Part shown: piece by piece, positions 1 through 20,493 of the stretch
Layout: every line of letters starts with the position of its first letter
Position numbering within the stretch: position 1 is the first letter of the stretch
Virus record (IMG/VR): IMGVR_UViG_3300049182_000023
Coordinates: 1 to 41,314 of that record
Origin: a virus
Lineage: Duplodnaviria; Caudoviricetes
DNA length: 41,314 bases
Strand: one strand, 5' to 3'
Made by a program: the position numbers and the translations under genes
The notes under the pieces: generated by a model
The model's input: only the letters and a program-made list of their open reading frames with translations
What the model was told of the DNA's origin: nothing
Databases searched by the model: none

Positions 1-127
1 TATCCGCTGTCGATCTTGTCGAAGAAAAGCTCTTTGGCGTTCGCTGCGCCCGTCGATGGGCGAACGAAGACCGGACAATGTTCGTGATACCTGTTCACCA
101 TCTCGAACAGGTTTTGAGTCGCTTGAT
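1..127. repeat. Terminal direct repeat (identical to 41188-41314); circular-assembly overlap
   Basis: The first 127 nt (tatccgctgtcg...gtcgcttgat) recur exactly at the end, and the terL frame continues across the join. 127 is a common assembler k-mer length. Confidence 0.95.
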
Positions 128-428
128 CCTCGTGCGTCAGGATGAAGGTCCGGATGCCGAGCGTCCACGTAGTGCGGTGGTAGTACCTCGCTCCTACGTA
201 GGTTGAGCAACCCTATTGCCGCCCCTTCAGGATCAGCGCACGGACTCTTCCGGTCTTGGCCCGCTGTTCCTCAAGGCACGCATGAATGTGCTGCTGGGCC
301 TTGTTGAACTCGTACGGCAAGACCTTCGCGGTCTTGGTGCGGATCTTCAGGCAGTTACGAGCGTAGAACTCCAGGTCATCGTGAAGCCGTGCCCGTAGCT
401 CACTGGAGGCTGGCAAGCCACTGCTCAT
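1..428 (-). CDS. terL: Terminase large subunit, N-terminal part (continues across the origin to 40077); in-frame TAG at 213-215
   Basis: ATG 428. Reads ...RALILKGRQ*GCSTYVGARYYH..., a Walker A KGRQ(Q)G motif split by TAG. The frame stays open to position 1 and joins ORF 40839..41288. Confidence 0.93.
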
Positions 429-669
429 GGGTCAACGTCATCTCACCTGAGTGCTCGACCGCAGAGAGGCGGGCATGTACGAACGGGGCCGCCGCCTTGG
501 CTGCGTCAAGTCGCTTGGCCTCGTCTTGGCTGTCATCGCGCATGACAGCAAGCATGTATTCCAGCGGCGTGACGCCGGATGCGGCAACAGCCTCCACCTG
601 CTCCACCGTCTTCTTGTTCCGAGTGCCCGGCTTGCGGCCAGCGCCCTCGCGCTTACCTCCGCGAGCCAT
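400..669 (-). CDS. terS: Terminase small subunit (89 aa, no internal TAG)
   Basis: MARGGKREGAGRKPG...TPLEYMLAVMRD...RLDAAKAAAPFVHARL is a typical TerS pattern. Overlaps the terL start; TGA stop. Confidence 0.8.
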   Translation of the reverse strand: MARGGKREGAGRKPGTRNKKTVEQVEAVAASGVTPLEYMLAVMRDDSQDEAKRLDAAKAAAPFVHARLSAVEHSGEMTLTHEQWLASLQ

Positions 670-691
670 ATTGATTTCCGTTGAAATTATT

Positions 692-868
692 TCAGGCCGG
701 AGTCGGCACGAAGTTGGTCAGAAGGTAGAACACCATCGCGTCCCACGTCTCGAACGTGAGGCACAGCTCAATCGGCGCGTCCTTGTTCTCGCTCACGCCA
801 TAGCCGCCGTTGAGCGTCTTGGTGATCACGATCTCTTTGCCCTACAGAAAGGTGGGAATGCCTGCCAT
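692..868 (-). CDS. Hypothetical protein, 58 aa if TAG at 842-844 (codon 9) is read through
   Basis: AGGAG RBS, ATG 868, MAGIPTFL*GKEIVITKTLNGGY...PTPA then TGA 692-694. Fills the gap between its neighbours; absent from the ORF track. Confidence 0.7.
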
Positions 869-880
869 GTCGTCTCCTGT

Positions 881-1540
881 TTAAACCCGATTCTTGAATC
901 CGCGCCCGTCCGTGCCTGCTTGGCGATTGCCGAAGCCGCTATTGCCAGCGCCCACGCCAAACCCTGCCGCCACGGATCCGAAAGCATCGTTGCCATAGTT
1001 CGCAGCGCCATAGCCCGTGCCTGCGCCCACACCGTTATTGAAGTGGCCGCTGCCGAAGCCGAGGTTGCCGCCGATAGGACGGCCCTGCGGCGATCCGACG
1101 AACGCGAGGCCACTACCGGGGGCAAATGGGTTCATTGGCTGCCACGGAGCCTGCGTGTTCACTGGCGGCATCGTTGGCACTTCGGGCGTCATGCCAGGGG
1201 CCATCCCGATGTTAGGAACGCCAAGGCCGGTTTGCGGATTGAAGTGCTGCATGGTCAACGGACCAATGCCCGCTGCGTCGCCGCCCTAGCCGCTGAAGTG
1301 ATCAACGCCTTTGCCAATCAGCTTGCCAGCAGCTAGGCCGCTCATCGGGCCGCCGTAGAGGCCCGCGATTGCTCGCATCGGCAACCCAGCCATACCCAAC
1401 ATCACGGCCCTGTTGTTTAGCGTGCCATCCGGTGCGCGCTGCTGGCCCGGCAGAATGCCGTTGACGAACGCACGGCCAGCCCTCTGAAACAGGTTTCCCT
1501 TGTATCCACTGAGGAAGCCCTAGCCGCGTGGTTCAGCCAT
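881..1540 (-). CDS. Gly/Pro/Asn-rich hypothetical protein, 219 aa with TAG at 1520-1522 and 1286-1288
   Basis: GGAG RBS, ATG 1540, MAEPRG*GFLSGYKGNLFQ...HFSG*GGDAAG. In frame with ORF 881..1258; TAA stop. Confidence 0.75.
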
Positions 1541-1544
1541 CGAT

Positions 1545-1829
1545 CTAATCTCCAGGCCACCACTCGGCCGTTACTGTCTGTCCGGTTGCGTCGTCTATGT
1601 AGACCGCCACTTGGCAGCCATCGCAATTGGCGGGGGCAGTAGGAATCGAACCCACCTTGTCCGGGTTAGAGCCGGATGCCTCAACCGCTCGGCCATGCCC
1701 CATCATTTCTGCAAGCTCAGTGATCGTGGTCAGTCCGGTAACCCTTTTGCCGAACACCGCGTCCCAGTTGGATTCCACCAGCGCAGCGTTCTCACGCCTT
1801 CGTGCATGCCCCTTGCCGCCTGCTGTCAT
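1545..1829 (-). CDS. Hypothetical protein (94 aa) whose frame runs through the suppressor tRNA; ends in TAG
   Basis: ATG overlaps the upstream TAA (TAATG coupling). The N-terminus GGKGHARRR...SNWDAVFGK resembles small phage proteins. Confidence 0.5.
   Translation of the reverse strand: MTAGGKGHARRRENAALVESNWDAVFGKRVTGLTTITELAEMMGHGRAVEASGSNPDKVGSIPTAPANCDGCQVAVYIDDATGQTVTAEWWPGD
1628..1702 (-). tRNA. Amber suppressor tRNA, anticodon CUA, glutamine-type body
   Basis: TGGGGCA TG GCC GAGCGGTTGA GGC A TCCGG CTCTAAC CCGGA CAAG GTGGG TTCGATT CCTAC TGCCCCC G CCA forms a 75-nt cloverleaf with encoded CCA. Anticodon CTA at 1669-1667. U1, G2:C71, G3:C70, U35 and G73 match bacterial tRNA-Gln identity elements. 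Confidence 0.95.
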
Positions 1830-2044
1830 TACTTAGCAGTCCTGCGAGCGACTTCAGACGCGACGCGCCAGTCAAACCAAAGGCTCGGCAGGCGTTCGGC
1901 GATGGCGGCCAGCACTGCATCCGGCGCGTTCTGTTCCGCAAGAGGGAACATCAGCCAGCGTTCCTGGCCGTCTTCGTCCCAATAGGAGATGCGCATCACT
2001 GCGCGATAGCCGCCCGTGGCTAGTTGTGCTGCGGTGTCTATCAC
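1829..2044 (-). CDS. Hypothetical protein (71 aa)
   Basis: ORF in operon orientation with a TAA stop. Confidence 0.6.
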   Translation of the reverse strand: MIDTAAQLATGGYRAVMRISYWDEDGQERWLMFPLAEQNAPDAVLAAIAERLPSLWFDWRVASEVARRTAK

Positions 2045-2053
2045 TTCACTTCC

Positions 2054-2641
2054 TCAGCGCGCAATCGCCAAATCAAACTTGTTTGACTTCTTCTGGTTGA
2101 TCGAGGCTGGAATTACCCGAAGGTTTCCGGGCACGTGCAGTCCGCTAACCAACTTGCCGAACAGCGGCACGACGTGATCTACCTGATGTGGTATCCCGAG
2201 ACACCGACTAACTCGGCGGGCCGACTCATAGAAGCAGACCATCTCGCTGCGCGACTGCCACGCAGGCCGCCTATCGCGCCTTGCGGCCTGTCTGGCCGCA
2301 GCCATAGGCGCTAGACGATCCTTGTTCCGCTCCTTCCACTCTCGCGAAGTGGCATAGGCACGGAGCTTGTTCTCCTCGTACCACTGCCTGGCCTTCCGCC
2401 TAGCTCGCTCCCTGCCTCTTTCTGAAGATCGCCCGCGCAGGTTCATCTCACGCCGTTTTTCGGGGTTAGCGGCCCTCCATGCCCTGGCACCCTCTCGCAA
2501 GCACTCGCAACAACCACGATTGCTCACCATCCGATCTGACTTGTGCCCATTAGCACAAGGAACACCCGTGAAATACGTCTTCCTGCCCGCTGCTCGCGCA
2601 TCCTCTCGCGCAGTGATCTGATTCATCGGCGAAGTGAGCAC
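2054..2641 (-). CDS. HNH endonuclease
   Basis: TYFTGVPCANGH N-terminal motif; C-terminal HQVDHVVPL...SGLHVPGNLRVIPASINQKKSNK. The start may be ATG 2626. Confidence 0.85.
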   Translation of the reverse strand: MLTSPMNQITAREDARAAGRKTYFTGVPCANGHKSDRMVSNRGCCECLREGARAWRAANPEKRREMNLRGRSSERGRERARRKARQWYEENKLRAYATSREWKERNKDRLAPMAAARQAARRDRRPAWQSRSEMVCFYESARRVSRCLGIPHQVDHVVPLFGKLVSGLHVPGNLRVIPASINQKKSNKFDLAIAR

Positions 2642-2823
2642 TCCCCGTACAAACGGATAACCTCGCTCTGCCAGATGATCCAGCTATCAGCCGAATCGTC
2701 CTCTGGTGGGGCGGGCAACTCAGTGCACGGAGCGGATGGCGGAATTGGTTTCACGTACTTGGTCCCGCACGCTGTCAGTGACAGGGCGAGGCAAAGTGCA
2801 ATTGCTCGGGTTGTTGCGGACAA
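2623..2823 (-). CDS. Rz1: o-spanin (Rz1-like lipoprotein)
   Basis: Lipobox LSLTAC, Pro-rich body, overlaps the 3' end of the Rz-like gene in another frame. Confidence 0.75.
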   Translation of the reverse strand: MSATTRAIALCLALSLTACGTKYVKPIPPSAPCTELPAPPEDDSADSWIIWQSEVIRLYGECSLRR

Positions 2824-3061
2824 CGGTCACCACCTTTGGCGGCAGATTGGCGAGCTTGTCTGCCTTCGCCTGCGCCTTGTTGCGGGCCTTTATGGCTTGG
2901 TCGCGCTCATCCACTGCGCGGGCCATCAGCTTGTTGTCAGCCTTCAGGTTGGCGGCCTCTTCGCGAATACCGCCGATCCAGAAGAAAAACCCGCATATGG
3001 CGACGTAGATCAGGAGCTTGATCAGGTCCGCGTATGGCTTGGCGGGGTCTAGCTTGCTCAT
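2720..3061 (-). CDS. Rz: i-spanin (Rz-like)
   Basis: N-terminal TM helix, coiled coil, C-terminal CTLP motif; lies in the lysis cassette. Confidence 0.75.
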   Translation of the reverse strand: MSKLDPAKPYADLIKLLIYVAICGFFFWIGGIREEAANLKADNKLMARAVDERDQAIKARNKAQAKADKLANLPPKVVTVVRNNPSNCTLPRPVTDSVRDQVRETNSAIRSVH

Positions 3062-3843
3062 AGAAGCGATGCCACTCTCGCGCCCTTGCGCAGATTCTCT
3101 TTAGCCCAAATCGGCCGAAGGTTCGTCAACGCCCAAGCGCGACGTAGCTCGGGGTCATCGGCTCCAGTGATCGTGAATGCTGCTAACGGAACGATGTGGT
3201 CGATGTGCCACTCGCCCATGTTTTCCCAGCTCATACCCTTAAGGAACTGGCGCTCTAGGTGAGCGACCAGCTCTTCCACTGAGTAGTCCACAAATTCGCG
3301 CCACGACCTGCCAGCCTTGCGCCTAGTAAGAACCTTATGAAATCGCCCGCGCATTCTTTGGGTGAGCAGGTGCGGGATTGACTCCCGATACTTCTCGCGC
3401 GTGCGGCGCTTCCACTCAGCTCCACGCCCCGGGACCGCCTCCCGTATGCGCTTGTTCTTGTCTCGAAACTTCTGAGGATTGGCGGCATACGCTGCTCGGG
3501 CACGGGCGCGAGCCCGCTCCTTACGCTCACGATCTGCCACTTCAGCGTTTGCGGCCCTTGCGGCCGCCCTCGCCTCCTTGCGGACAGCGGCCTCTTGCCT
3601 AAGCTTTTCAGCGCGTCGGCTCACTGCTTGGTCGCGCAGGTCAGGGTTGTTCTGACGCCAACGCCTTGCATACAAGGCGGTGCAGGCTTTGCACTTTCTA
3701 TGCAGGCCATCCGGATAGCGCGAGTACTTCCCGTACTCAGTTAGCTGTTTGATTTCTCCACAATCGATGCAGGCCCGCATACGAACCTGAGATGCGGACT
3801 TCGGCGCAGAAATCAACGTTATCTGGCTATTACAAAAGTGCAT
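3058..3843 (-). CDS. HNH endonuclease
   Basis: N-terminal CxxC...CKAC; C-terminal GMSWENMGEWHIDHIVPL...TNLRPIWAKENLRKG. The start is uncertain (possibly ATG 3780). Confidence 0.85.
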   Translation of the reverse strand: MHFCNSQITLISAPKSASQVRMRACIDCGEIKQLTEYGKYSRYPDGLHRKCKACTALYARRWRQNNPDLRDQAVSRRAEKLRQEAAVRKEARAAARAANAEVADRERKERARARARAAYAANPQKFRDKNKRIREAVPGRGAEWKRRTREKYRESIPHLLTQRMRGRFHKVLTRRKAGRSWREFVDYSVEELVAHLERQFLKGMSWENMGEWHIDHIVPLAAFTITGADDPELRRAWALTNLRPIWAKENLRKGARVASLL

Positions 3844-4334
3844 CCGAATTGGTCGGTCATCGCACTCACAACCCCGATCAACTCACCCGCGTCATTGAAC
3901 AGACCAGACCCCGAATCGCCCGGACAAATAGTCCCGTCAACCGCAATTCCATCCTCGTAAACAGCGACCACCGTGCCGCTTCTTAGGACGTATGGAACGC
4001 CTCGTGGCTGGCCCCACCAGCGGACGTGATCGCCCGCCTTTGCCTTGCCCAGCTTCGCCCATGTACCAAAGCGGATGCCCGCCAGCTTCACGCGGAGGCG
4101 GTCAGGGCCAGTGGCGTGAGACGAAACGATTGCCACCATCTGCCCGTCAATACTCACCAGCGGGTGAGCGAGGCAATGTGCCGCCGTCTCGATCTCATCT
4201 ACTGCGACAGCCGTTGCGCTGCACACGCTCTGCGTCGTCTCCAGACGGAGCGCGAAGGATCGCGGGTCAACGGGCGGATGCGCTTCTGCACACCCTCCGA
4301 CCATCATGGCGAGAAGGAGTGCGAACAGGCGCAT
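3819..4334 (-). CDS. Trypsin-like (S1) serine protease, predicted lipoprotein
   Basis: Signal peptide ending VGGC; CSATAV, TAAHC (His) and GDSGSGLF (Ser) motifs. Confidence 0.8.
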   Translation of the reverse strand: MRLFALLLAMMVGGCAEAHPPVDPRSFALRLETTQSVCSATAVAVDEIETAAHCLAHPLVSIDGQMVAIVSSHATGPDRLRVKLAGIRFGTWAKLGKAKAGDHVRWWGQPRGVPYVLRSGTVVAVYEDGIAVDGTICPGDSGSGLFNDAGELIGVVSAMTDQFGCTFVIAR

Positions 4335-4338
4335 TGCT

Positions 4339-4515
4339 TTAAGTCCTCGTCACCGCTTGGTCAGCGACATTGCCCGCCAGATACAGGCCCACTACCCACG
4401 CGGACTGGCTAAGCCATTGCGCCGCGTCGATCTTTCCAATCGAGAAGAACACCAGCCCAGCAACGAACGCCGCACAAGCAATCAGGAACTTACGGCTGGC
4501 GTAGCGGGTGTCCAT
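4339..4515 (-). CDS. Small two-TM membrane protein, holin candidate (58 aa)
   Basis: MDTRYASRKFLIACAAFVAGLVFFSIG...AWVVGLYLAGNVAD. TAATG-coupled start; translated by hand. Confidence 0.6.
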   Translation of the reverse strand: MDTRYASRKFLIACAAFVAGLVFFSIGKIDAAQWLSQSAWVVGLYLAGNVADQAVTRT

Positions 4516-4634
4516 TACTTGCCGCGCCTGCGATCCTTAGCCGTCTTGCCGGTGCGAACCTGCTTGGTAGTGCGCGAGCCGGTGCGGATTTCCACGCTGC
4601 CGTCCCGCATGAACTTCTTGTACTGGTAAGTCAT
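4515..4634 (-). CDS. Small basic protein (39 aa)
   Basis: MTYQYKKFMRDGSVEIRTGSRTTKQVRTGKTAKDRRRGK; start and stop are coupled to both neighbours. Confidence 0.5.
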   Translation of the reverse strand: MTYQYKKFMRDGSVEIRTGSRTTKQVRTGKTAKDRRRGK

Positions 4635-4792
4635 CAGTCAGTCCCGCCAACCTTGTAGAACTCGGAATCGCCAATCCCCGCCCAGTCCTCGACGCGAATG
4701 GCGCGCACGAACAACTGGCTGGACACCCAAATCGCGGCATCACTGCCCTTGTGCAGCAGCCAAGCCAGAACGGTTGCGGTTAGAACCTTCAT
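4634..4792 (-). CDS. Hypothetical protein (52 aa)
   Basis: ATGA overlap with the endolysin stop; begins MKVLTATVLAWLL. Confidence 0.5.
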   Translation of the reverse strand: MKVLTATVLAWLLHKGSDAAIWVSSQLFVRAIRVEDWAGIGDSEFYKVGGTD

Positions 4793-5250
4793 GCCCTGCC
4801 CTCGCAGATGGCGCGCTCTGCGGAGCGGCGCTTGACCAGTCCACGCAACTTGATGCCCTTCGCGTAGACCCACTTGTCGAACTCAGCGCAGGCAGCCGGT
4901 AGCTCGCCCGCGTTCACCCGCTTGACCAGCGTCGAACCGCACGCCTTCGCCACGCCCACGTTGTAGGCAAACGAAAGCAGCGCAGCCGCCTCGTTCTGCT
5001 TGAGCGGCACCTTGATGCACTTATCCAGTTCAATCGCATGGCGGTACAGGGACGCCCCCAGTACTGCCATGCACTCGTCCCGACTGAAGCGGGCCTTCAT
5101 GCCCACCACGCCGCCGTCCGTCTCGCCTACACACGCCGTGGGAATGCCAACCGGATCTTGGTACGTGGTCAGCACCACGCCCTCATACACGGCCACGAAC
5201 GGGGCCGCCGCCAGCACTACTGCCAGCGATGCGACCTTGGCCTTGCTCAC
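4789..5250 (-). CDS. Endolysin, GH24 lysozyme, likely SAR type
   Basis: Hydrophobic N-terminus followed by YEG...YQDPVGIPT (E-x8-D-x5-T triad), SFAYNVG and GLVKRRSAE. Confidence 0.92.
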   Translation of the reverse strand: MSKAKVASLAVVLAAAPFVAVYEGVVLTTYQDPVGIPTACVGETDGGVVGMKARFSRDECMAVLGASLYRHAIELDKCIKVPLKQNEAAALLSFAYNVGVAKACGSTLVKRVNAGELPAACAEFDKWVYAKGIKLRGLVKRRSAERAICEGRA

Positions 5251-5456
5251 TTGTCGGCTTTCCCGTCTAACTTGCTTTCGATCCGATCAAGCTGCGCCAG
5301 GATTCGGTCCTCTAGACCGTCCACGCGCTTGTCCGTGGCTTCCTGCTTGGCGGTCTGCACGTTGATGCGGCCCTCAAGCCGGACCAGCCACACCACGCCA
5401 CCTAGACCAGCCAGTGCGAGCGTTACGCCTGCACCTAGCAAGCTTCCAAAGTCCAT
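5247..5456 (-). CDS. Single-TM coiled-coil protein, holin/antiholin candidate
   Basis: N-terminal TM plus charged coiled coil ending RIESKLDGKADK; directly upstream of the endolysin. Confidence 0.55.
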   Translation of the reverse strand: MDFGSLLGAGVTLALAGLGGVVWLVRLEGRINVQTAKQEATDKRVDGLEDRILAQLDRIESKLDGKADK

Positions 5457-5574
5457 ACAGCACGTTCCCTTCGTGTGCCCTATGGGCTGGATAAGAATTC
5501 CCTATAAAACAAGGGGTTTCTGCGCAAAACGGGCTCAAATCGGCCTGAATCGACCAACCTTGAATTCCCCTCGA

Positions 5575-5778
5575 TTAGTGCGTCCCCTCAGCGGGGTTGT
5601 GCGCCATGCGTAGCGCGATCTCCGCCATACCCTCAGCGAATGACCGCAGCCCGCTGGGAATGTCCAGCAAGGCCGATTGCTGCCCCTGCCGCGTCTCGTA
5701 GACCACGGCCACGGAAAACACTTCCGGGTCGCCGTCTGCCTCAGCGAGTCGAGCGAGCCTTTCGCTTAGGCGCGTCAC
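5575..5778 (-). CDS. Hypothetical protein (67 aa)
   Basis: GTGA-coupled ORF with a TAA stop. Confidence 0.6.
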   Translation of the reverse strand: MTRLSERLARLAEADGDPEVFSVAVVYETRQGQQSALLDIPSGLRSFAEGMAEIALRMAHNPAEGTH

Positions 5779-6356
5779 AGCAGCTTTTCCAACTCCAACC
5801 GGAGTGGCGCTGAAGTCTTGGTGAAATCAGTGTCGAACGTCGGGTTTGCGGCGGCCCGAAGGCTCGCAATCTCCGACATGACCGTTCCCGGCCTGTACCA
5901 CTTCCGCTTATCTGCGATGACGTTGTGGAAGTGGATGTAAGCGTTTGCGGTTCGGGTGTACTTCTCCAGATCAACCGGAGCATCTAGCTCGCGGATCATC
6001 CGAATGGCGCGACGCTCGCAGTCCGCCTCTAACTCCTGCACGGTACGGACGGCCTCGCGCGGGTTCTTGATCGCCTTACCGTCGATCCAATCCCACATGC
6101 CTTCCTTGACGCTACGCCAAACGGGCGCGCCTTCAATCCACTGCGTCAGGTGCGCGTACTCATGAATCAGGACGCCAACCCAAGCATCTTCGGATCGGCC
6201 CGTCGCCACAGCGAGCCTGCGGGTCTGATCGCAGAAGAAGCCGCCGCACTTGAATCCGTCGCCGGAGTCCACCGTTGCTTCCGGAGACAGCAGGACCGAC
6301 ACCCCAAACCGCCAAGCGCGCCGGGTTAGCTCCCAAACAACGTCATCGGCGGTCAT
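5775..6356 (-). CDS. Putative zinc metallopeptidase (HEXXH)
   Basis: VLIHEYAHLTQW motif and downstream ELEADCE. Confidence 0.65.
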   Translation of the reverse strand: MTADDVVWELTRRAWRFGVSVLLSPEATVDSGDGFKCGGFFCDQTRRLAVATGRSEDAWVGVLIHEYAHLTQWIEGAPVWRSVKEGMWDWIDGKAIKNPREAVRTVQELEADCERRAIRMIRELDAPVDLEKYTRTANAYIHFHNVIADKRKWYRPGTVMSEIASLRAAANPTFDTDFTKTSAPLRLELEKLL

Positions 6357-6598
6357 TCGCGGAACAGCCCAAGCGCTTCCAGCTTCATGTCGCGGGCAAT
6401 CTCTTCAGCCAGCGCAGCCATTTCCAGTGCGTTGGCGCTGCACTGCGCCTTCGGCGGGTCGCCGTCCAGCATCACCCAATAGCCAAATCCGGCCTTCGCC
6501 GAATTGACCAGCGCTTCAGCCACTTTCTCAGCCTGCGCCACAACGTCAGCCACCACCGGCTCACCCTTGCCCACTACGGTCAGGGTTGGCTTGGTCAT
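6353..6598 (-). CDS. Hypothetical protein
   Basis: GGAG RBS before ATG 6598 (MTKPTLTVV); ATGA overlap with the next gene. Confidence 0.6.
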   Translation of the reverse strand: MTKPTLTVVGKGEPVVADVVAQAEKVAEALVNSAKAGFGYWVMLDGDPPKAQCSANALEMAALAEEIARDMKLEALGLFRE

Positions 6599-6609
6599 GG
6601 CGGGCTCCA

Positions 6610-6640
6610 AAGGAAAATGCCCCGCGATAATCAGCGGGGC
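6610..6640 (-). terminator. Intrinsic terminator (tR'-like position)
   Basis: GCCCCGC-TGATTATC-GCGGGGC followed by ATTTTCCTTT on the minus strand, just after the Q-like gene. Confidence 0.6.
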
Positions 6641-6695
6641 GGGTAACGGTGCGTTGGCACTTTTCGCCACCCTCTTAAGAAGGATGGCATGGAAT

Positions 6696-7217
6696 TTATG
6701 CCGCCATGTCGGCTAAAGCCGGTGCCTCAGTAACTCGTTTCAGCCGCGTTGCCCAAAGTAGCTGCGACTCGAACTGCTGCATCTGCACGGTGGCGGCACC
6801 AGCCACGAAATTGCGGATCTTCTTGTACGCCTGCCACCGGCACTTCAGCTGTGTGGCGCGAGTCTCCAGTCCGGGCACGAAGTTAGGCCCCAGGATCGCC
6901 ATGCGCAGCCCGTCACGCGACGCCTGTCGCCCCCACTCTGGACGGTAGCTCTCAACATAGGTGCGCCGCCTCTCGCCAATGGCGGGCTTCAGCGTGGCTG
7001 CTAGCTCGCCTAAGCCTTCGGCCCATTCGATCAACTCGCGCTGGAAGAACGGAACGTCCGCTACCCACGTAATCCACAGCTCATAACCGATGTGGTTATC
7101 CGGCAAGGTCGAACACGCGACCGCTGCCGTGTAGTGAGCCGCGTCCGGCAACTGACGCCGCCCGAAGGCCGCGTAGTAGCCGCGCAGGTCGTCAATGTCC
7201 CAAGTCTCTTTACCCAC
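6696..7217 (-). CDS. Putative late regulator (Q-like antiterminator by position)
   Basis: 173 aa; last gene of the early/middle operon, followed by an intergenic gap with a terminator and then late genes. Function is inferred from synteny only. Confidence 0.45.
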   Translation of the reverse strand: MGKETWDIDDLRGYYAAFGRRQLPDAAHYTAAVACSTLPDNHIGYELWITWVADVPFFQRELIEWAEGLGELAATLKPAIGERRRTYVESYRPEWGRQASRDGLRMAILGPNFVPGLETRATQLKCRWQAYKKIRNFVAGAATVQMQQFESQLLWATRLKRVTEAPALADMAA

Positions 7218-7272
7218 GGCTCACCCCTGAAGTGACGCGGCAGTACATAGCCGCCGCGCCTTGTTGTTCCGC

Positions 7273-8121
7273 TTACTTGACCTGAATGAACGGCACTGCG
7301 CCGCCTGCGTTTGTGGTCGGCAGGACGCCGTTCCACTTCTCCACCGCCGTCATCTGTACGATTTCCGGATTGGCCGTGATGGCGCTGGCCTTGATGCGAA
7401 TGGCGTTTGCTTCGGCTTCGGACCGGATGCGCATGGATTCCGCCTCACCCTGCGCCGTTGCAATCTGGATCTTCGCGTCAGCTTCGGCCTTGCGGACTTG
7501 GTTCTCCGCCTGCTGCGCCTGCTGCGTCATCTGAATCTTTGCGTTGATCGACTGGACCACCGTCGGCGGCAACCGCAGTTCGCCCACCCAATAGACCTTC
7601 TCCACGATGATTCCCAGCGGCGACACTTGCGCCATCACATCGTTCTGAACTCGCTCGACCAGCTTTGCCTTGCCTGCGCCGTACACCGATTCCACAGGCA
7701 TGCTGCTGGCGTTCTTCACCAGCGAATCGCGAACCATGTTGCGCAGGTAGATATCCGTGATCTCGTCCACACCCTTTCGGTACTTCTGGAATACCAGCGC
7801 GGCCTTACTCGGATCGATACGGTAGGAGATGCCAACGTCCGCCGTGACGGACAGTCCTTCGACGGTCTGGAAGCCAAGCTCCTCGTTGGCGCAGTCACCC
7901 TCCTGGCATTCCTTTGTCCACGTGTAGTTCTGCGTGAACGTCGGGAACAGGTACAGCTCTTCGTTGATGCCGATCCAATAGCGACCGGGGCCAAGCTCCT
8001 CCACGTCCACGCCTTTGCTGCCACCTAGCAAGTACGCCTTGATGCCAACATTGCCAGCGGGCACCTTTGAACAGGCGGTCATCATCAGCAGGGCCAAGCC
8101 TGCAAGCAGATACTTTTTCAT
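7273..8121 (-). CDS. SPFH/band-7 (prohibitin-like) lipoprotein
   Basis: MKKYLLAGLALLMMTAC lipobox, VPAGNVGI, GPGRYW, Ala/Glu coiled coil, EKWNGVLP. Confidence 0.88.
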   Translation of the reverse strand: MKKYLLAGLALLMMTACSKVPAGNVGIKAYLLGGSKGVDVEELGPGRYWIGINEELYLFPTFTQNYTWTKECQEGDCANEELGFQTVEGLSVTADVGISYRIDPSKAALVFQKYRKGVDEITDIYLRNMVRDSLVKNASSMPVESVYGAGKAKLVERVQNDVMAQVSPLGIIVEKVYWVGELRLPPTVVQSINAKIQMTQQAQQAENQVRKAEADAKIQIATAQGEAESMRIRSEAEANAIRIKASAITANPEIVQMTAVEKWNGVLPTTNAGGAVPFIQVK

Positions 8122-8282
8122 TGCGGATTCCTTTTGAGGATTCGATAAGTGCCCCAAGCTCCGAGACAGGCGAGCGCGAGGCCAGCGATTGGCAGCTCAT
8201 AGCTGCGATGCGAGATCAGCGCCGGACCAATGAAGGCCACGAACGCAAGCCAGAACACGACCAGAACAGAAATGCGTTTCAC
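8118..8282 (-). CDS. Small two-TM membrane protein
   Basis: Hydrophobic 54-aa ORF coupled to the SPFH gene. Confidence 0.6.
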   Translation of the reverse strand: MKRISVLVVFWLAFVAFIGPALISHRSYELPIAGLALACLGAWGTYRILKRNPQ

Positions 8283-8557
8283 GTCCACGCGAGCAAACTC
8301 CCAAACCAAACAACCGGGGCCATCACAGCTAGAAGCCCCACATGCACAGCTACGTGCGCCCGCTCATGCAGGCATAGCCATGCGGCCAGAACCATTGCCT
8401 TCGACGCCGCGAACCAGCCGACTCCCCACTGTTCGATAACCCAGCGCATCATCGGATTGGATTCGGCATCAGCGCCAAGCGTCATCACGAACGAGATCGT
8501 TGCGGCAGCGTCCATCAGCCAGAGCGATGCGAAGATGGCGGCGAGGAATGTCTTCAC
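8279..8557 (-). CDS. Membrane protein (DUF5658-like)
   Basis: DAAATI...GADAESNPMMRW motif and multiple TM segments. Confidence 0.6.
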   Translation of the reverse strand: MKTFLAAIFASLWLMDAAATISFVMTLGADAESNPMMRWVIEQWGVGWFAASKAMVLAAWLCLHERAHVAVHVGLLAVMAPVVWFGSLLAWT

Positions 8558-8645
8558 GCCCCACCTCCAACCGTCTGCTGCGCCCAATACCCCAACCACG
8601 CCGCGCCACTAATCGCTAGGCCGATGCAGAACCATTTGAGGCGGG

Positions 8646-8933
8646 TCATGGGTCCATCTCCAGCGCCGGTTCGTCATTGCGTTCCGAGCGCCACTTGTTG
8701 AATCGCACCGTCCCGTAAGTGCCTACCCAGCCACCCAGCACAGCAGCCACCAAAAGGCGGTTGTCGTGGATGTATGAGATGGACGCGAACGCGCCGCACG
8801 CCATGATTGCCGCGCTCCACGAGGCGGCCGCGAGCGCCTTGCCTTCGTTGACCTTGGCGATGTAGAGCGTCCAGCAGGTATCAACCGCGACTAGCGAGAA
8901 GAACACCAACGCGAATTGCACGGGGAATGTCAT
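8646..8933 (-). CDS. Membrane protein (95 aa)
   Basis: Three hydrophobic segments, GGWVGTY. Confidence 0.65.
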   Translation of the reverse strand: MTFPVQFALVFFSLVAVDTCWTLYIAKVNEGKALAAASWSAAIMACGAFASISYIHDNRLLVAAVLGGWVGTYGTVRFNKWRSERNDEPALEMDP

Positions 8934-9745
8934 ACCGCCCTCGCCAATGAGAACCGCTGCTTTGCGTTGCGGCGATTTCGCTGCAACCAGCGGGCAACCG
9001 TCGTACCCGCAAACGTGCGGCTCAGGTAATCAATGCTTAGTGGCATCTCGCAGAACTGGCCGTTCTTGACCTCGTTCAACACCACTACGCCCCGCCAGTG
9101 CTTGTTCGCCGCGCCTTTGTACGGCTCGTCATGGAGGTAGCAGCTACCGGCCACCACGCCGTATGCAATGTCGCCAGTGGCGTACTGGAAGTCGCCGCGC
9201 TTTAGCCCTTGTTCGTGGCCTTGCACGAAGCTGCCGCCGATCTTGGCAATGCGGTTGGCGATGGTTCCGCCAATCGGCTTGCCAGTGTTGGGCTGCGCGA
9301 AGAAGTGGGCGTAGCGCACACCGTCCACGACAACGATTCCAGGCGCTCCGTCCTGATAGGGGACTATCTCCCAATCCGCGTCATCCAGCAGATGCAGGCC
9401 AATCAGCCCCTCTAGCTCGGGATGCCGGTCAACGTAGTTGTTGAGTCGCTGGTCATGGTTTCCGCGCAGCTTGATCTTGCGCTTAGGGCGGAACTTACCC
9501 ATGCCCTCACGTAACAGGCGCTCGCCTTCGTTGTAGGCGTCAATGTCAGCCTTGAGGCGACGGCCTTCCTTCGCCAGCGTGCCCGGCTCTGTGTGCCGGC
9601 TGATCGACTCAAAGTCGGGACCGTCGCCAAGATCGATCACTACATCCGGCTCATAGCGGGCGATGGCTTGACCAACCCAGCGGTTATGTTCCAGCGGAAC
9701 GTCTGGCTTGTTCTGACGATCAGGCAAAACGAAGTGACGGCGCAT
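8930..9745 (-). CDS. Calcineurin-like metallophosphoesterase
   Basis: LPDRQ, DLGDGPD, GNHDQR and QGHEQ motifs. Confidence 0.85.
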   Translation of the reverse strand: MRRHFVLPDRQNKPDVPLEHNRWVGQAIARYEPDVVIDLGDGPDFESISRHTEPGTLAKEGRRLKADIDAYNEGERLLREGMGKFRPKRKIKLRGNHDQRLNNYVDRHPELEGLIGLHLLDDADWEIVPYQDGAPGIVVVDGVRYAHFFAQPNTGKPIGGTIANRIAKIGGSFVQGHEQGLKRGDFQYATGDIAYGVVAGSCYLHDEPYKGAANKHWRGVVVLNEVKNGQFCEMPLSIDYLSRTFAGTTVARWLQRNRRNAKQRFSLARAV

Positions 9746-10158
9746 CAGTTGCCCACCTCGCCCGGCACACCGTCGTCACGTTCGCCAAGGTCGCGCAGGT
9801 AGGCGGCGGCCACTTCATGCGGCACGACTTCGGGCAACCGCGCGTTACGTGGAAGCGGCGCGTTCTCTTCGCGCTCCAACTCTTCCTGCAACTGAGCCAG
9901 CGCACGCCACGCCACCTTCGCACTGTGCCGCGTGCCGTCCGTGTCGATCGTTCCGGCTTCCAACTGGTGCCGAAGGATCTTGTTTGCGTGGTCCGTGGAC
10001 TTGCCCCGCGCCCAATGCATCGGCTGGCCGGGGTTGTGCTGGTCGTTCCCGATCTTGCTAACGCGGGCAACCGCAGCCAGTGCGGCCGGGAAGTAGTACA
10101 GCAGCCCGTCTGCCATCGGGTAATCGTTACGGTCGATGGGGTTCTTCGGGAGGCTCAC
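9745..10158 (-). CDS. dATP/dGTP diphosphohydrolase-domain protein (DUF5664-like)
   Basis: YFPAALAAVARVSKIGNDQH...HSAKVAWRALAQLQ. Confidence 0.75.
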   Translation of the reverse strand: MSLPKNPIDRNDYPMADGLLYYFPAALAAVARVSKIGNDQHNPGQPMHWARGKSTDHANKILRHQLEAGTIDTDGTRHSAKVAWRALAQLQEELEREENAPLPRNARLPEVVPHEVAAAYLRDLGERDDGVPGEVGN

Positions 10159-10394
10159 TTGGCGGCCTCCGGCGTATTGCCGAACTTCATCCGGTTGAAC
10201 ACGCGGCGGATGAACAACTGCCGCAGCATCGAAATGCCGGTGAACACAAGGCCGATGCCAAACGCCTTGGCTGCCGTCAGTGTGTCGAAGCCGAACATGG
10301 GTAAAAACACCATGTTGGCCGTCCAGTTGATCGCGAAGCCGATGACGATATTCGTCTTGGCCTCAACGATTGAACCTAACCATGTTTGTGCCAT
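10155..10394 (-). CDS. Small membrane protein (DUF7220-like)
   Basis: MAQTWLGSIVEAKTNIVIGF...FTGISMLRQLFIRRVFN. Confidence 0.7.
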   Translation of the reverse strand: MAQTWLGSIVEAKTNIVIGFAINWTANMVFLPMFGFDTLTAAKAFGIGLVFTGISMLRQLFIRRVFNRMKFGNTPEAAK

Positions 10395-10431
10395 TTGCCG
10401 GGTTCCTTTGGACTTCCCGGCTTTGAATAAT

Positions 10432-10713
10432 CTACCCAGTTGCGGCAAGTTTCGCGGAAGCGGCCTTCCCTTCTATTGCCGAATTTCGCCAGTTGCGCAC
10501 TGTGCGCTCGCTCACGTCCCACTGACGCGCCAAGTCTGCCGTCCTGTTTCTCAGGTCAAGCAACAACTGCACACGGCGGTTATCGGCGATGCTCTGCACG
10601 GCCTTAAACTCCACCGTGTCCATGCACTGTTCCATCAGCTTGCGTGAAGCCCCCGCCTCCACAAGCTCATCGATGGCTCGCTGCACAATCTCGCTAACTC
10701 GCGTGTAGCTCAT
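10432..10713 (-). CDS. HTH DNA-binding protein; ends in TAG
   Basis: TADLARQWDVSERTVRNWR HTH; ATG 10713. Confidence 0.65.
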   Translation of the reverse strand: MSYTRVSEIVQRAIDELVEAGASRKLMEQCMDTVEFKAVQSIADNRRVQLLLDLRNRTADLARQWDVSERTVRNWRNSAIEGKAASAKLAATG

Positions 10714-10721
10714 AACGCCCC

Positions 10722-11120
10722 CTAGCTCAGATGCTCGCGCACGATCAGGAAAAATCCGTCTGGTGATAGGTCCATCGTGTATTGCAGCTCGCGCCCCCAC
10801 TGCTGCCCACTAGCCCACGCCTGCGGTAACGGGACACGGAAGCGCCAGCCCTTGCGCGGCACCTTGTAGGCGAGGCACGGTTGCGCATCACGCTTGCTGG
10901 CTGCCTGCACCGTCTGCTGCCACCAGGACTTGAGGTTCAGTGAGGCACAGTTCTTCACTTCCAAGCTGTACGGGCCGACGAGTTGTTCAATGTCCGCAAG
11001 CTGGCTCTGTTGGTACTGCTTCAGTAGCCTGTTGAACTCGCCGCCTAAGTTGTCGCGGAGTAGCGCGCAGATTTCGCGTTCGCCACGAGCGCCCTTGTTG
11101 CGTGACTTCGCGCCGCTCAT
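10722..11120 (-). CDS. PD-(D/E)XK endonuclease / Holliday junction resolvase-like; ends in TAG
   Basis: SRNKGARGERE, ADI, LEVKN and WWQQT motifs. Confidence 0.8.
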   Translation of the reverse strand: MSGAKSRNKGARGEREICALLRDNLGGEFNRLLKQYQQSQLADIEQLVGPYSLEVKNCASLNLKSWWQQTVQAASKRDAQPCLAYKVPRKGWRFRVPLPQAWASGQQWGRELQYTMDLSPDGFFLIVREHLS

Positions 11121-11365
11121 GGCCGGTCCTGGTACCACTCGATCCTGTAGTCGCCGATGCGTTCCTCAGCGGCATAGCCAACGCCTGGCACCTGCACCCC
11201 GACGATCACATCCATGCCGTCCTGCTCAGCGGCGTCCAGCACCTCTTGCTGCGTACAGCCGTAGCGCTTGGCTAGCTGGCGAACAGTGGGCCACTCGCTG
11301 TGATGCTTGTCGGAGTAGCTCTTGGCGTACTCGCGCAACCGCTGCTCTAAGGATTCAGTCTTCAT
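11117..11365 (-). CDS. Hypothetical HTH-like protein
   Basis: PTVRQLAKRYG; ATGA overlaps on both sides. Confidence 0.55.
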   Translation of the reverse strand: MKTESLEQRLREYAKSYSDKHHSEWPTVRQLAKRYGCTQQEVLDAAEQDGMDVIVGVQVPGVGYAAEERIGDYRIEWYQDRP

Positions 11366-11610
11366 TCCCCACCCTCCAGCGCGGCGCGGCCTGCGGGGGT
11401 TACGGTGAATGTGTCGGATGCGCGGCGGTTCCACTCAGTAGTTGCCGTTTTCTCCCAGCCTTCGACCACCTCTCCGCCAGAAGACTTACGGAACAACGGG
11501 CCGTGCATTTCACAGTCGCCGCAATGGACCGCTCCCCACCGGTAATTCCCAACGTCGTCAAAGTAGAGATCAGAACCGCCACAGAACGGACATTCACGCA
11601 GCTCGTTCAT
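11362..11610 (-). CDS. Lar-family restriction alleviation protein
   Basis: LRECPFCGG...VHCGDC...WNRRA. Confidence 0.75.
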   Translation of the reverse strand: MNELRECPFCGGSDLYFDDVGNYRWGAVHCGDCEMHGPLFRKSSGGEVVEGWEKTATTEWNRRASDTFTVTPAGRAALEGGE

Positions 11611-11923
11611 AACTAACCTCCTCCAACCCAACCCGAACCATCGGGCGCAACTGGCCGGGACTAACCGGTCCGCGCCACTTCTTCGCACGCACGTCTAGCA
11701 GCGCCTCACGCAACTGACGCGGCCACAACTCCACCGGCTGCGGCTTGCGCACCGTGCGATCACGGCGGCGACCCATCTTCGTCCGCTCGGCCATGTATTC
11801 GTTACGGCATGGCTTGCAGTAACTCTGAACCTGCATCCGGCCGTTTGGCTTCAGGTAGTAGCTGAAGCAGTCCAGCGGCTTTGCCGTTTCGCATCGGGAA
11901 CACATCCGCATGCCTTCCATCAC
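11594..11923 (-). CDS. Zn-finger hypothetical protein
   Basis: CSRC...YCKPC. Confidence 0.6.
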   Translation of the reverse strand: MMEGMRMCSRCETAKPLDCFSYYLKPNGRMQVQSYCKPCRNEYMAERTKMGRRRDRTVRKPQPVELWPRQLREALLDVRAKKWRGPVSPGQLRPMVRVGLEEVSYERAA

Positions 11924-12261
11924 TTCGCTCCCTTAATCGTCAAAAACCCGTGGTCATGCCAGAACCGCAACGTGCGCACCGTTGAACGGAAGGCGTAGAA
12001 CAACCATTCCTCTGAGCCGCGCTGAATGCCGTGCGTGCCGTTGGAATCCATCACGGTGTGGCATGGCACACACGAAAATCCTGCGCAAAGGTCATCGGGC
12101 TTCTGTGCACCGCCCGCGTTGCCGGAGAATCGCCAGTGCGCCAGGACGCAACCGGCCGTCTTTGCGTCCGTGTTGTCAGGGCAAACGCCTGCGATCTGCA
12201 CCGTGCAATACGCATCCGGATGCCCTGCCGAGTCGCGCAGCTTTTGGCTGATGATGCTCAT
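11920..12261 (-). CDS. DUF1364/YbcO-like nuclease-domain protein
   Basis: SQKLRDSA...CTVQIAGVC...VLAH...KPDD...CVPCH. Confidence 0.75.
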   Translation of the reverse strand: MSIISQKLRDSAGHPDAYCTVQIAGVCPDNTDAKTAGCVLAHWRFSGNAGGAQKPDDLCAGFSCVPCHTVMDSNGTHGIQRGSEEWLFYAFRSTVRTLRFWHDHGFLTIKGAK

Positions 12262-12479
12262 GCGGCCTCCTGGCGGCGGCGGTCTTCGACAAGCAGCGAA
12301 TGGATAAACGCCCGCATATCGAATCCCGACTGGCAGATGCGACGGCCTTCATCATTCAAGTACCAGCCGCACCCGCTGTCTTGAGACACCGTGGCCTTAG
12401 ACCCGTCCGCAAACTTCACAACGTCTCCGTATTCCGGAGGGTTGAACAAGCTCAATGCGCAAGCCTCACGCACGCCCAA
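12258..12479 (-). CDS. Hypothetical protein
   Basis: ORF in operon; start uncertain. Confidence 0.5.
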   Translation of the reverse strand: MGVREACALSLFNPPEYGDVVKFADGSKATVSQDSGCGWYLNDEGRRICQSGFDMRAFIHSLLVEDRRRQEAA

Positions 12480-12642
12480 CCTCGCACGTCGCCTTGCACT
12501 CGTCCGCCGTGTCCGCCACGAGTAGCGACACGTCCGGCTTCCGGATCGCTTGGTATTTCGGCTTACCGTTCACGATGTATTTCGTCACGATGTACCTCTT
12601 GCATTCGCTCTCTAGGTGCCACTTGCTGGCTTTGGTCCACAT
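12466..12642 (-). CDS. Hypothetical protein (58 aa)
   Basis: TGATG-coupled to the dnaB stop; begins MWTKASKWHLESECKRY. Confidence 0.55.
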   Translation of the reverse strand: MWTKASKWHLESECKRYIVTKYIVNGKPKYQAIRKPDVSLLVADTADECKATCEVGRA

Positions 12643-13976: not shown

Positions 13977-14719
13977 GCATCACCGCCCTTGTCGTGGTAG
14001 CGGCCTTCGATGACCTTTGCGAAGTTCTCCGGCATCACCAGCCAGTCGAGGCCGGGCAGGAACGGACGGCCCTGACGGTCGGCACGCTGGCCTGTCAGGA
14101 ACGGCGATCCGGCGACATGCGAGAAGAAGCGTTTCCAGTAGTCGAGGCTCTGGCGCTTCTCGTCCTCGCGCCACCGGGTACGCAGGTTCGATTGACGCTT
14201 GCCGGTCCACGCCTTGATCCGTGGGTTAGCGGGAAGGGCCTGGTGGTACAGCTCGATGATTTCGGCGTGCGGGCAGCCGTCAGGCGGCAAAGAAGCTTTT
14301 GCTTCTTCTTCTCTTCTCTTCTCTTCTCTAGGTAACGCCTTCGTAACGGTAGAAGTAACGCTGTCATCGTTACTTTTTGCGCGATGTTCAGAGGCCCTTT
14401 TTGCACCAAGTGCCCTAGATTTAGCGGTTTCACCCGTATGACGGTCAAAGTTGGGTAGGCTGACGCCCACGGCGGTGACCACGATCCAGTCCACAGACTC
14501 CATCGCGGCGACGAATCCTGTAACGCCAGCGATACGGTCGAGTAACGGTCGAGTAACGCCAACACCGTTACCGGAGAGGGTGTGTGTGTCGAACCAGGAC
14601 CACACCCGAATCAGCTTTCCGACCACTGCATCCGGATCCATATCCAGCTTCGCAGCGATGGCGAAGACCTCCGGTTTCTCAGGAGTTGCCTTCTCGAACT
14701 TCAACCAATCACCCGCCAT
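13973..14719 (-). CDS. Replication initiator (lambda O-like)
   Basis: MAGDWLKFE...KPEV...W.WFD, PNFDRH, C-terminal LDWLV...NFAKVIEGRY; precedes dnaB and contains iterons. Confidence 0.85.
   Translation of the reverse strand: MAGDWLKFEKATPEKPEVFAIAAKLDMDPDAVVGKLIRVWSWFDTHTLSGNGVGVTRPLLDRIAGVTGFVAAMESVDWIVVTAVGVSLPNFDRHTGETAKSRALGAKRASEHRAKSNDDSVTSTVTKALPREEKRREEEAKASLPPDGCPHAEIIELYHQALPANPRIKAWTGKRQSNLRTRWREDEKRQSLDYWKRFFSHVAGSPFLTGQRADRQGRPFLPGLDWLVMPENFAKVIEGRYHDKGGDA
14303..14571. repeat. Putative replication origin: GTAACG iterons and CT-rich tract
   Basis: GTAACG at 14332, 14343, 14355, 14520, 14542 and 14553; inverted CGTTAC at 14368 and 14566; (CTCTT)n tract at 14303-14330. All lie inside the O-like gene. 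Confidence 0.6.
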
Positions 14720-14742
14720 CGCCCTGCCCCCTGCAATCCCGC

Positions 14743-14943
14743 TTACTGCCCGAACAACTCGCCAACCTGCCCCGCACGTACCGCTAAGTAGTCCGCTTCC
14801 CATTGCCTTCGTTCGGCCTCGTCCACGGGCCGCTCAAGTTCCTGTCTGGCCTTAGCCAAAACCTCCACGTAACGTGACTTAGGCTTCGGCTGGGAGACTG
14901 CAATCCGATGCAGGCGGACGCGGAAAAGAGGGCGCGGGGTCAT
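14743..14943 (-). CDS. Hypothetical protein
   Basis: ATGA-coupled start MTPRPLFRV; TAA stop. Confidence 0.55.
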   Translation of the reverse strand: MTPRPLFRVRLHRIAVSQPKPKSRYVEVLAKARQELERPVDEAERRQWEADYLAVRAGQVGELFGQ

Positions 14944-15784: not shown

Positions 15785-15791
15785 AGTGACC

Positions 15792-20490: not shown

Positions 20491-20493
20491 GAA

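Follow-up and report, generated by a model that had tools for sequence, protein, structure and literature searches.

The 41,314-nt viral record IMGVR_UViG_3300049182_000023 (Duplodnaviria; Caudoviricetes), which was analyzed over its full length and is called the window here, is one circular temperate phage genome with a GC content of about 0.6, whose last 127 bases repeat the first ones as a terminal overlap. In its late block, between the lysis and the packaging genes and co-oriented with them on the reverse strand, lies a cassette in which an amber-suppressor tRNA gene with the anticodon CUA (1628 to 1702) is contained whole and in frame in a 94-codon open reading frame (ORF; 1545 to 1829). 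The ORF ends in a conserved 18-residue peptide, which is predicted to bind the codon-reading surface of the host release factor 1 (RF1). The locus probably provides both a suppressor tRNA and an RF1 antagonist and acts as a two-way code switch in the late phase. It is also, if narrowly, likely that it belongs to a widespread mobile cassette, in which the gene of an amber-suppressor tRNA is at the same time the coding sequence of a specific RF1 inhibitor, in many cases interrupted by a TAG, and the late switch reinforces itself.

In the proposed mechanism, a single late transcript would span the lysis genes, the cassette, and the morphogenesis genes and would be silent in the lysogen. A Q-like antiterminator would switch the locus on after induction; because it presumably acts only then, the lysogen would read TAG as stop. 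Each cassette transcript would be either processed to the tRNA or translated to the peptide. Once excised, the tRNA would insert glutamine at TAG, and the peptide would cover the stop-reading surface of RF1 and weaken termination at TAG, while RF2 would still terminate at TAA and TGA. At ten loci with a TAG inside the peptide, the full peptide would need prior suppression, which would therefore create a positive feedback between tRNA and peptide. Early TAG codons would keep the capsid, scaffold, adaptor, ejection, and fiber proteins unmade until the switch is on. Locking of the lysis genes varies by lineage, and those of the window are not locked.

The candidate for the antiterminator is a gene at 6696 to 7217 (reverse strand), which is likely of the Q type according to its structural model with a predicted local distance difference test score (pLDDT) of 84. 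Its best structural matches are AlpA (Z 7.1, root-mean-square deviation (rmsd) 4.0, 132 residues aligned) and lambda Q (Z 6.5, rmsd 2.7, 89 residues aligned), both below the Z of 8 that marks a clear match. The best viral match is an antitermination protein Q (probability 0.97, E value 0.21); neither ESM Atlas nor a Foldseek search of the PDB gave a hit. Just 3' of this gene and ahead of the late block, a terminator-like hairpin is found at 6619 to 6640 on the same strand, which is weak by itself, as four such sites were found in the window and 7.7 were expected in shuffled sequences.

The nearest relative found is a prophage in a 1.07-Mb contig of Lysobacter koreensis CCUG 55491 with a capsid identity of 92%, which carries a CUA tRNA and in-frame TAG codons as well. 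The strain encodes both RF1 and RF2, and TAG is the stop codon of 3 out of 30 genes flanking the prophage. Capsid searches revealed recoded relatives and seven standard-code relatives, and the latter contain neither internal TAG codons nor a CUA tRNA (ARAGORN, 95% threshold). In a capsid tree of 22 rows, at least two changes are needed for the recoded/standard label, and the window forms one 100/100 group with G001, G002, G005, G006, and L004. According to the run records, the runs containing the window stem from soil or rhizosphere metagenomes, and a single one of them contains more than half of its sequence words.

The suppressor tRNA, the reading frame around it, and the C-terminal peptide

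The tRNA gene is the only one with a CUA anticodon in the window; it was detected by ARAGORN and matches Rfam RF00005 with 49.2 bits. It has a U1:C72 mismatch and G73. A mismatch at 1:72 and G73 are determinants for glutaminyl-tRNA synthetase, and both recur without exception in the 26 distinct CUA loci (25 checked by script and 1 by hand), whose tRNAs are 71-94 nt long and have long variable arms in some cases. The tRNA of the window is thus likely charged with glutamine. The capsid codons TAG51 and TAG145 are located on invariant glutamine columns, and glutamine is the top residue opposite the TAG codons of the window in standard-code relatives (28%, next residue 11%). Pyrrolysine, after which ARAGORN names CUA tRNAs ("Pyl"), was rejected because no Pyl machinery is encoded in the 83 ORFs and TAG aligns with glutamine. 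Serine, leucine, or tyrosine, considered for the tRNAs with long variable arms, found no support, as glutamine is the top residue in G407 and G410 and the result is unclear in G414. A search for a sigma-70-like promoter of the tRNA within positions 1-9000 found none, which shows little, and an RNA run yielded five short contigs, none of them across the tRNA, and is uninformative on expression.

The surrounding ORF, whose protein is present in public collections (P0001), ends with TAG, and read-through would add four codons up to a TGA at 1533-1535, overlapping the start of the next gene. Further in-frame ATG codons are located at 1706 and 1703, at the 5' edge of the tRNA. The ORF crosses the tRNA in the frame in which G73-C74-C75 is an alanine codon, and all of the 26 distinct CUA loci are free of stops in this G73 frame over the length of the tRNA, as compared with 10 and 6 loci for the other frames. 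The N-terminal part (1746 to 1829, reverse strand) contains the motif GKG..R..NW, which is in frame in 12 of 14 loci; in standard-code relatives this part is a separate short ORF without a tRNA, and the motif alone occurs in three of the seven. The C-terminal peptide YIDDATGQTVTAEWWPGD (1548 to 1601, reverse strand) has the consensus YIDD.TG..V.E.WWPGD and is absent from all seven standard-code relatives. In the 19 loci having this motif it is always in the G73 frame, at distances of 2, 14, 26, 80, 101, 119, or 122 nt from the tRNA. These seven distances correspond to six frame-keeping insertions with a chance of 1/3 each, or about 0.001 if they are independent. In one locus (L163:5731-6050, reverse strand, G414), the ORF is open through tandem tRNAs, CUA and then Asn GTT, before the motif is reached.

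The peptide is conserved at the protein level. Among ten loci, the proportion of synonymous differences in the coding frame (pS 0.79) exceeds that of nonsynonymous ones (pN 0.27), and the valine and proline residues are invariant in 18 loci yet use all four codons. A role of the motif as an RNA element that pairs with the CCA end was excluded by the synonymous variation and by changes of tryptophan to phenylalanine or tyrosine. TAG is located inside the peptide in 10 of 18 aligned loci, and in the window it follows the peptide. Scans of viral_contigs with the peptide motif only, a fairer test than conservation in sets picked by pattern, were made with two patterns and found 11 and 16 loci, corresponding to 18 distinct contigs. 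Each of the 18 carries a CUA tRNA 5' of the motif and in its frame; ARAGORN called 17 of these tRNAs, and the remaining, degenerate one was read by hand. The six contigs new in the second scan have in-frame TAG codons in nearby genes. The degenerate tRNA (L007:2916-2990, G005), which ARAGORN missed and which was found via the motif, has a shrunken D-arm and an in-frame TAG in its D-loop.

When 1.84 billion proteins were searched with a profile, 70 hits were obtained. Among the 54 short hits, a WWP-type end is found in 48, and in 39 it is preceded by residues of the tRNA 3' end; the long hits are hairpin-only repeats. Some carriers, L158 and L160, have head genes without tblastn hits to those of the window, suggesting that the cassette moves between phage lineages. 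It is found in no INPHARED record of cultured phages, where the best capsid match is 46%. A capsid profile detected five prophages, one of them recoded, in 400 scored genomes of the host family. A DNA pattern for the cassette had no match in 401 genomes of that family, but this result is uninformative because the pattern also missed G001, in which the motif is present. An attachment-site repeat was looked for at the tRNA-Ser of the G001 prophage, and none was found.

Several further elements adjoin the cassette in other genomes. A second short and conserved peptide, (M)xNWRRFRE-TAG-VP-TAG, lies just 3' of the tRNA at G004:23888, G407:22270, G408:21502, G410:15722, and L171:1160; all changes are synonymous in the three sequences compared by eye, and the peptide may do the same job or sense suppression. 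HNH endonuclease genes are located between tRNA and peptide in P0073, P0086, and G408 (21086-21421), in P0073 as an in-frame fusion with both ends of the ORF, and are possibly homing elements targeting the cassette. A TAG-free family of 66-67 amino acids (LVRTNGNDVRVIAP-like), which often adjoins the cassette (L158:6044-6244, L159:3948-4151, L160:167-370, G004:23922-24125) and is absent from the window, could be a further part of the switch.

The hypothesis that was modeled is that the peptide antagonizes RF1, the competitor of any TAG suppressor. Alone, the peptide is predicted to form a β-hairpin (pLDDT 67). The complex of the window peptide with L. koreensis RF1, modeled with alignments of 8 and 20 rows, respectively, scored 0.64 (0.69, 0.58, and 0.64 in the runs), and the best of three controls scored 0.00. 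At least 76% of the contacts were common to the runs, with a partner pLDDT of at least 64. In this model, the hairpin pairs with RF1 residues 193-200, and contacts are made with residues 118-124, 181, 183, 185, 188, 193-200, 306, and 313. The touching peptide residues Y18, I19, D20, D21, V27, W31, W32, and P33 are the conserved ones. In RF1 structures, the stop codon is read by the Gly-Glu helix tip, Gln185, His197, and Thr198. Out of 21 residues of the RF1 patch, 15 are invariant in 20 RF1s, and P188 is part of the PxT motif of the recognition loop (PMC11903333). The patch residues 185, 188, 193, 194, 196, and 200 differ in the host RF2; these six differences would therefore allow the peptide to be specific for RF1 over RF2. 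Solved structures show that the same sheet in RF2 is extended by a β-strand of ArfA (PMC8012679). Pfam and PDB searches revealed no likeness of the peptide to ArfA or any PDB chain, and the ArfA family (PF03889) had no hit among 13 ORF products at E values up to 10, where the HMMER filters drop most hits above 0.1.

TAG codons in the window and in related genomes

A first-pass annotation of the window had described its virion genes as silenced by a translational gate of early TAG codons, and the first TAG codons that it listed for 15 genes (7, 9, 9, 13, 22, 35, 37, 42, 43, 49, 51, 72, 91, 156, and 388) were found again exactly. In the 21 morphogenesis genes, 25 of 320 glutamine codons are TAG, spread over these 15 genes, as compared with 0 of 221 in the 49 early and middle genes (Fisher p=1.3e-6) and 0 of 36 in the ten genes between holin and tRNA. 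Permutation of TAG among the glutamine codons confirmed that the 5' bias is real: the first glutamine codon is TAG in 10 of the 15 genes (null 4.0, p=5e-5), and the mean relative position of TAG is 0.34 vs. 0.47 (p=0.002). The number of genes hit also exceeds a random scatter over glutamine codons (p=0.006). A purine follows 24 of the 25 TAG codons, as compared with 174 of 295 CAG/CAA codons (p=3e-5), and a purine 3' of TAG is a context that favors suppression. Only TAG interrupts frames in the window, with no in-frame TAA or TGA, and the matches to protein families extend over the read-through products. Gene breakage and sequencing errors were excluded, because only TAG is affected and the TAG codons of relatives are at other sites; over positions 1-6000, no letter differs from the best-matching run, which may be the source sample. 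Reading TAG as sense raises the coding density from 0.885 to 0.919, a gain of 3.4 points, and in eight recoded genomes the gain is below 0.11 in five and below 0.07 in four (all with our own gene caller, not Prodigal).

Some of the initial wording has to be narrowed. That the assembly genes are amber-locked overstates the case, as 6 of the 21 morphogenesis genes are free of TAG (terS 400-669, 39898-40080, 37476-37757, 37318-37644, 32369-32677, and 26127-26531). The claim of one to three TAG codons regardless of length does not hold, because the TAG count climbs with gene length (Spearman 0.72, p=0.0003). The freedom of early and lysis genes from TAG is borne out by the counts in the window, but the lysis boundary is weak in a single genome: the lack of TAG in the lysis block has p=0.063 per glutamine codon and p=2e-4 per gene. 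The candidates for holin, endolysin, and spanin have only eight glutamine codons in all, with a chance of 0.52 for zero TAG. The two genes that had been placed first after the tRNA do have TAG at codons 7 and 9, but the first ORF there is the tRNA-containing one at 1829-1545, which ends in TAG. In two reverse-strand genes, 692-868 and 35071-35340, the sole glutamine codon is a TAG at codon 9; since most relatives have another residue at this position, TAG seems to be placed for the lock and not for the amino acid. Two middle genes on the reverse strand, 10432-10713 (helix-turn-helix protein) and 10722-11120 (RusA-like resolvase), stop at TAG, and read-through would extend them by 22 and 3 codons, respectively.

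Across the relatives, the idea of a gate on virion genes fared well, and the codon distributions support a selected translational lock, which may serve to suppress leaky expression in the lysogen, to time virion synthesis, or to evade host defenses and sensors. A 5' bias of TAG is found in all 16 recoded genomes tested (p<0.05 each), and a spread of TAG over extra genes is significant in 6 of the 16. TAG is retained in key genes, namely in the capsid gene of 15 of 15 recoded genomes (expected 9.7), at ten alignment columns of which one is common to nine, and in the adaptor gene of 15 of 15 (expected 9.0). All genomes having the respective gene carry TAG in the scaffold (14/14), the first ejection protein (11/11), and the fiber (10/10, expected 5.6). 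A glutamine-rich gene 3' of the portal gene (37476-37757 in the window, reverse strand) has a TAG in only one of 15 recoded genomes, near its end (expected 6.4), and may be needed before the switch or in large amounts.

For pooled counts, near-duplicate genomes (G409, L008, L012, and others) were excluded; L004 and L009 have no lysis block and were counted only in morphogenesis tests, and the early regions of the metagenome loci L110, L115, L116, and L117 are missing or short. In the 14 pooled genomes, with our own gene caller, TAG makes up 35 of 443 glutamine codons in the lysis block, 437 of 4621 in the morphogenesis block, and 6 of 1806 in the early region, the latter mostly near gene ends and likely calling errors. 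These counts overstate independence because the genomes are related. When the genomes are split by lineage and the codon-9 gene is left aside, the lysis blocks of the window and of four close relatives together contain one TAG in 170 glutamine codons (expected 8.9, P=0.0013), and those of nine other genomes contain 30 in 258 (expected 28.8). Sparing of the lysis genes is thus a trait of the subclade of the window and does not extend to the nine other genomes; in seven of these, at least one candidate for holin, endolysin, or spanin carries TAG, and the endolysin gene does so in five genomes outside the subclade. A sharp boundary at the tRNA, which had also been proposed, does not hold in general, given the TAG-bearing genes upstream of the tRNA in G004, G407, G408, G409, and G410, where they are homologs of the codon-9 gene at 692-868, and in G006, where such a gene is directly upstream. 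Because of these upstream homologs in five genomes and the lysis recoding elsewhere, the border of TAG usage follows gene class and lineage and not the position of the tRNA.

Alternatives to a two-way code switch

A first alternative, which we regard as unlikely, is that the ORF acts in cis, by ribosomes that cross the tRNA or stall at WWP, and that the peptide does not act on free RF1. Such an ORF could control excision of the tRNA, shield the late mRNA 3' of it, or link its own translation to that of the following gene. The register that is fixed over tRNAs of 71-94 nt would fit this explanation, as would the ORF stop that touches or overlaps the following ATG in 14 out of 18 loci, the TAG codons inside the tRNAs of G004, G005, and G410, which would set ribosome traffic, and an 18-residue C-terminal motif that suits the exit tunnel, a property familiar from arrest peptides. 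However, the distance from tRNA to motif ranges from 2 to 122 nt, the motif is 3-12 codons from the stop in 16 of 18 loci and 46 and 185 codons in the other two, and the complex model pairs the conserved residues with a specific partner. Action in cis can be true together with the code switch. That the peptide instead recruits or redirects RF1 in the manner of ArfA without inhibiting it, for example for clearing ribosomes at TAG or on cut late mRNA, is improbable in our judgment. In its favor, strand addition is the way in which ArfA recruits RF2 (PMC8012679), and the ArfA family was over the cut-off in neither of two genomes inspected in this respect (G001 and G147). Against it, ArfA stays off the SPF loop (PMC8012679), whereas the model contacts P188 of PxT and Q185, and the strict linkage to a suppressor tRNA fits a lowered, not a raised, RF1 activity.

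There also seems little chance that the window is an ordinary case of code 15 achieved by the tRNA alone, in which TAG codons accrued later and the ORF is an accident or an unrelated peptide. This route has been proposed by Borges et al. (bioRxiv 10.1101/2021.08.26.457843), and it would agree with the TAG count that scales with gene length. It is opposed by the 5' bias in every genome tested, the capsid TAG codons kept at shifting sites, the late gene that avoids TAG, the six in-frame spacer lengths together with codon-level selection on the peptide, and the linkage of motif and tRNA in 18 of 18 contigs. Two other observations are on its side. In the dense-TAG genomes G407, G408, G410, and G415, TAG is not spread over extra genes (p 0.33-0.77). 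The G73 frame is also open in 16 of 20 control tRNAs, so that an open frame alone says little, which weighs against a two-way code switch as well.

Further points against a two-way code switch concern the motif and the models. The motif is absent from 7 of 26 CUA loci, where the other short peptide (NWRRFRE-TAG-VP-TAG) is found, and is therefore not needed for recoding. In P0062, P0069, P0077, P0081, and P0086, it occurs at the protein level without adjoining tRNA-derived residues. The loci with a tRNA in an ORF are related to one another, and both the motif set and the profile were selected for an amino-acid pattern, with tRNA-derived columns in the profile, which favors conservation and linkage. 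Glutamine is found less often opposite the TAG codons of the window (28%) than opposite CAG/CAA (43%), and among the residues of standard-code relatives opposite TAG it ranks first for 10 of 15 genomes, shares the first rank for two, and ranks lower for three (G414, G415, and L004). The complex score is a model confidence. Of 157 solved pairs, 116 reached its mark, as did 2 of 215 mismatched ones, which is only a rough calibration for our own alignments. The RF1 in the model was taken from the host of the closest relative and is not necessarily that of the window's own host. Since ArfA strand addition has been solved, the pass of the model may partly be a memory of the ArfA mode.

Remaining genes and comparison with known systems

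Scans of the 83 ORFs with PHROGs and Pfam identified an integrase, an excisionase, repressor and cro-like regulators, a replication initiator, and a DnaB helicase as well as an endolysin and an SU10-type portal, capsid, and adaptor. On the reverse strand downstream of the tRNA, a glycine-rich gene with no assigned function (881 to 1540, TAG codons 7 and 85), whose start overlaps the read-through end of the tRNA ORF, is followed by a conserved 58-amino-acid gene with TAG as its only glutamine codon (692 to 868) and homologs in recoded and standard-code relatives, and by terS for the terminase small subunit (400 to 669; PHROGs 641), which is free of TAG. The terminase large subunit is encoded across the circular junction, with the 5' part at 1 to 428 (TAG codon 72) and the 3' part at 40077 to 41288 (two TAG codons; PHROGs 2), which join to a 512-amino-acid frame with TAG at 72, 259, and 415. 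The SU10-type portal, scaffold, major capsid, adaptor, nozzle, three ejection proteins, and fiber are encoded at 26531 to 39892 (reverse strand) with sparse early TAG codons; the labels are based on Pfam PF23899, PF17236, and PF24175 and on PHROGs. The second ejection protein (29443-31098, reverse strand) contains a Peptidase M15 domain at residues 235-287 and is likely a virion cell-wall hydrolase, judging from this domain.

The TAG-free lysis block upstream of the tRNA (1829 to 5456, reverse strand) includes two HNH genes besides a holin candidate (5247-5456), an endolysin (4789-5250), a protease (3819-4334), and a spanin candidate (2720-3061); the holin and spanin labels are based on position and hydrophobic N-termini, not on family hits. 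At 5460-5490, next to an AT-rich gap just upstream of the holin candidate, a number of contigs from other runs stop or begin to differ from the window; a repeated element or a late promoter may be located there. The early/middle region (7273 to 25704) uses the standard code and encodes replication, repressor/cro, and recombination functions, an excisionase, and the integrase (24502-25704); two of its genes end with TAG. Middle genes on the reverse strand also encode an SPFH/Band 7 lipoprotein (7273-8121), a metallophosphoesterase (8930-9745), and a dATP/dGTP diphosphohydrolase domain (9745-10158).

The closest known counterparts of the window are the Garnet and Topaz clades, temperate gut phages with TAG recoding (code 15) and a suppressor tRNA (bioRxiv 10.1101/2021.08.26.457843). 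As in these clades, TAG stands for glutamine in the structural genes, the integrase and early genes are in standard code, the prophage resides in a standard-code host, and recoding has been proposed to gate both the late genes and the lysis-lysogeny switch. Their hosts are Bacteroidetes and Firmicutes, and a low-GC route was described, whereas the closest prophage to the window is gammaproteobacterial and the GC content of the window is about 0.6. Lysis and structural genes of Garnet and Topaz are recoded as a block, with the lysis genes often the most recoded; this is also the case in other carriers of the cassette, in contrast to the lysis block of the window. The screen of Borges et al. required a gain in coding density of more than 10% for genomes below 100 kb, and the window stays below this mark. 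Recoding extends to GC-rich soil phages akin to a gammaproteobacterial prophage that are too sparsely recoded for coding-density screens, and the peptide motif finds suppressor tRNAs that ARAGORN misses.

In the available text of Borges et al., RF2 or synthetase genes are reported for a few phages and the mechanism of the code change is left open, including how a recoded phage beats host RF1 within minutes. This question becomes testable because an 18-residue candidate and a cultured strain with a cassette prophage, L. koreensis CCUG 55491, are at hand. Neither a tRNA inside an ORF nor an RF1-binding peptide is mentioned in that text; the window has the former, and the latter is predicted. CrAss-like and jumbo phages (PMC7886860, PMC13037316, PMC9523058, and PMC11210395) share a tRNA(CUA) and a recoding of mostly late genes, and TAG as glutamine has been confirmed by proteomics in two crAss-like phages. 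They are, however, large and mostly virulent gut phages in which the helper is a phage RF2 gene and not an RF1 antagonist, and the available parts of these papers do not mention a dual-coded tRNA. A literature search, made mostly without subscription journals, found no ORF-nested suppressor tRNA, no phage inhibitor of RF1, and no proteobacterial soil phages with code 15; relatives may be listed in the supplementary tables of Borges et al.

ArfA and BrfA resemble the phage peptide as short proteins that add a β-strand to the domain II/IV sheet of a release factor (PMC8012679), which is only predicted for the peptide. Both bring RF2 to non-stop ribosomes without covering its SPF loop (PMC8012679), whereas the phage peptide is modeled on the PxT region of RF1. 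Unlike ArfA and BrfA, it is encoded through a tRNA. In phage P4, translation across cI prevents termination. The P4 CI RNA and Gifsy-1 IsrK are likewise small functional RNAs cut from a phage transcript, and IsrK doubles as small RNA and mRNA, but both are antisense or regulatory RNAs and not decoding tRNAs (PMC4825925).

If the model is true, the peptide would be a natural protein antagonist of stop-codon recognition by RF1 and the missing half of phage code switching. If it is specific for RF1, it would also be a small, genetically encoded tool for better amber suppression in genetic-code expansion with RF1 kept. The recoding itself is of a known kind; the dual-coded tRNA/peptide gene would represent a new kind if inhibition of RF1 is shown.

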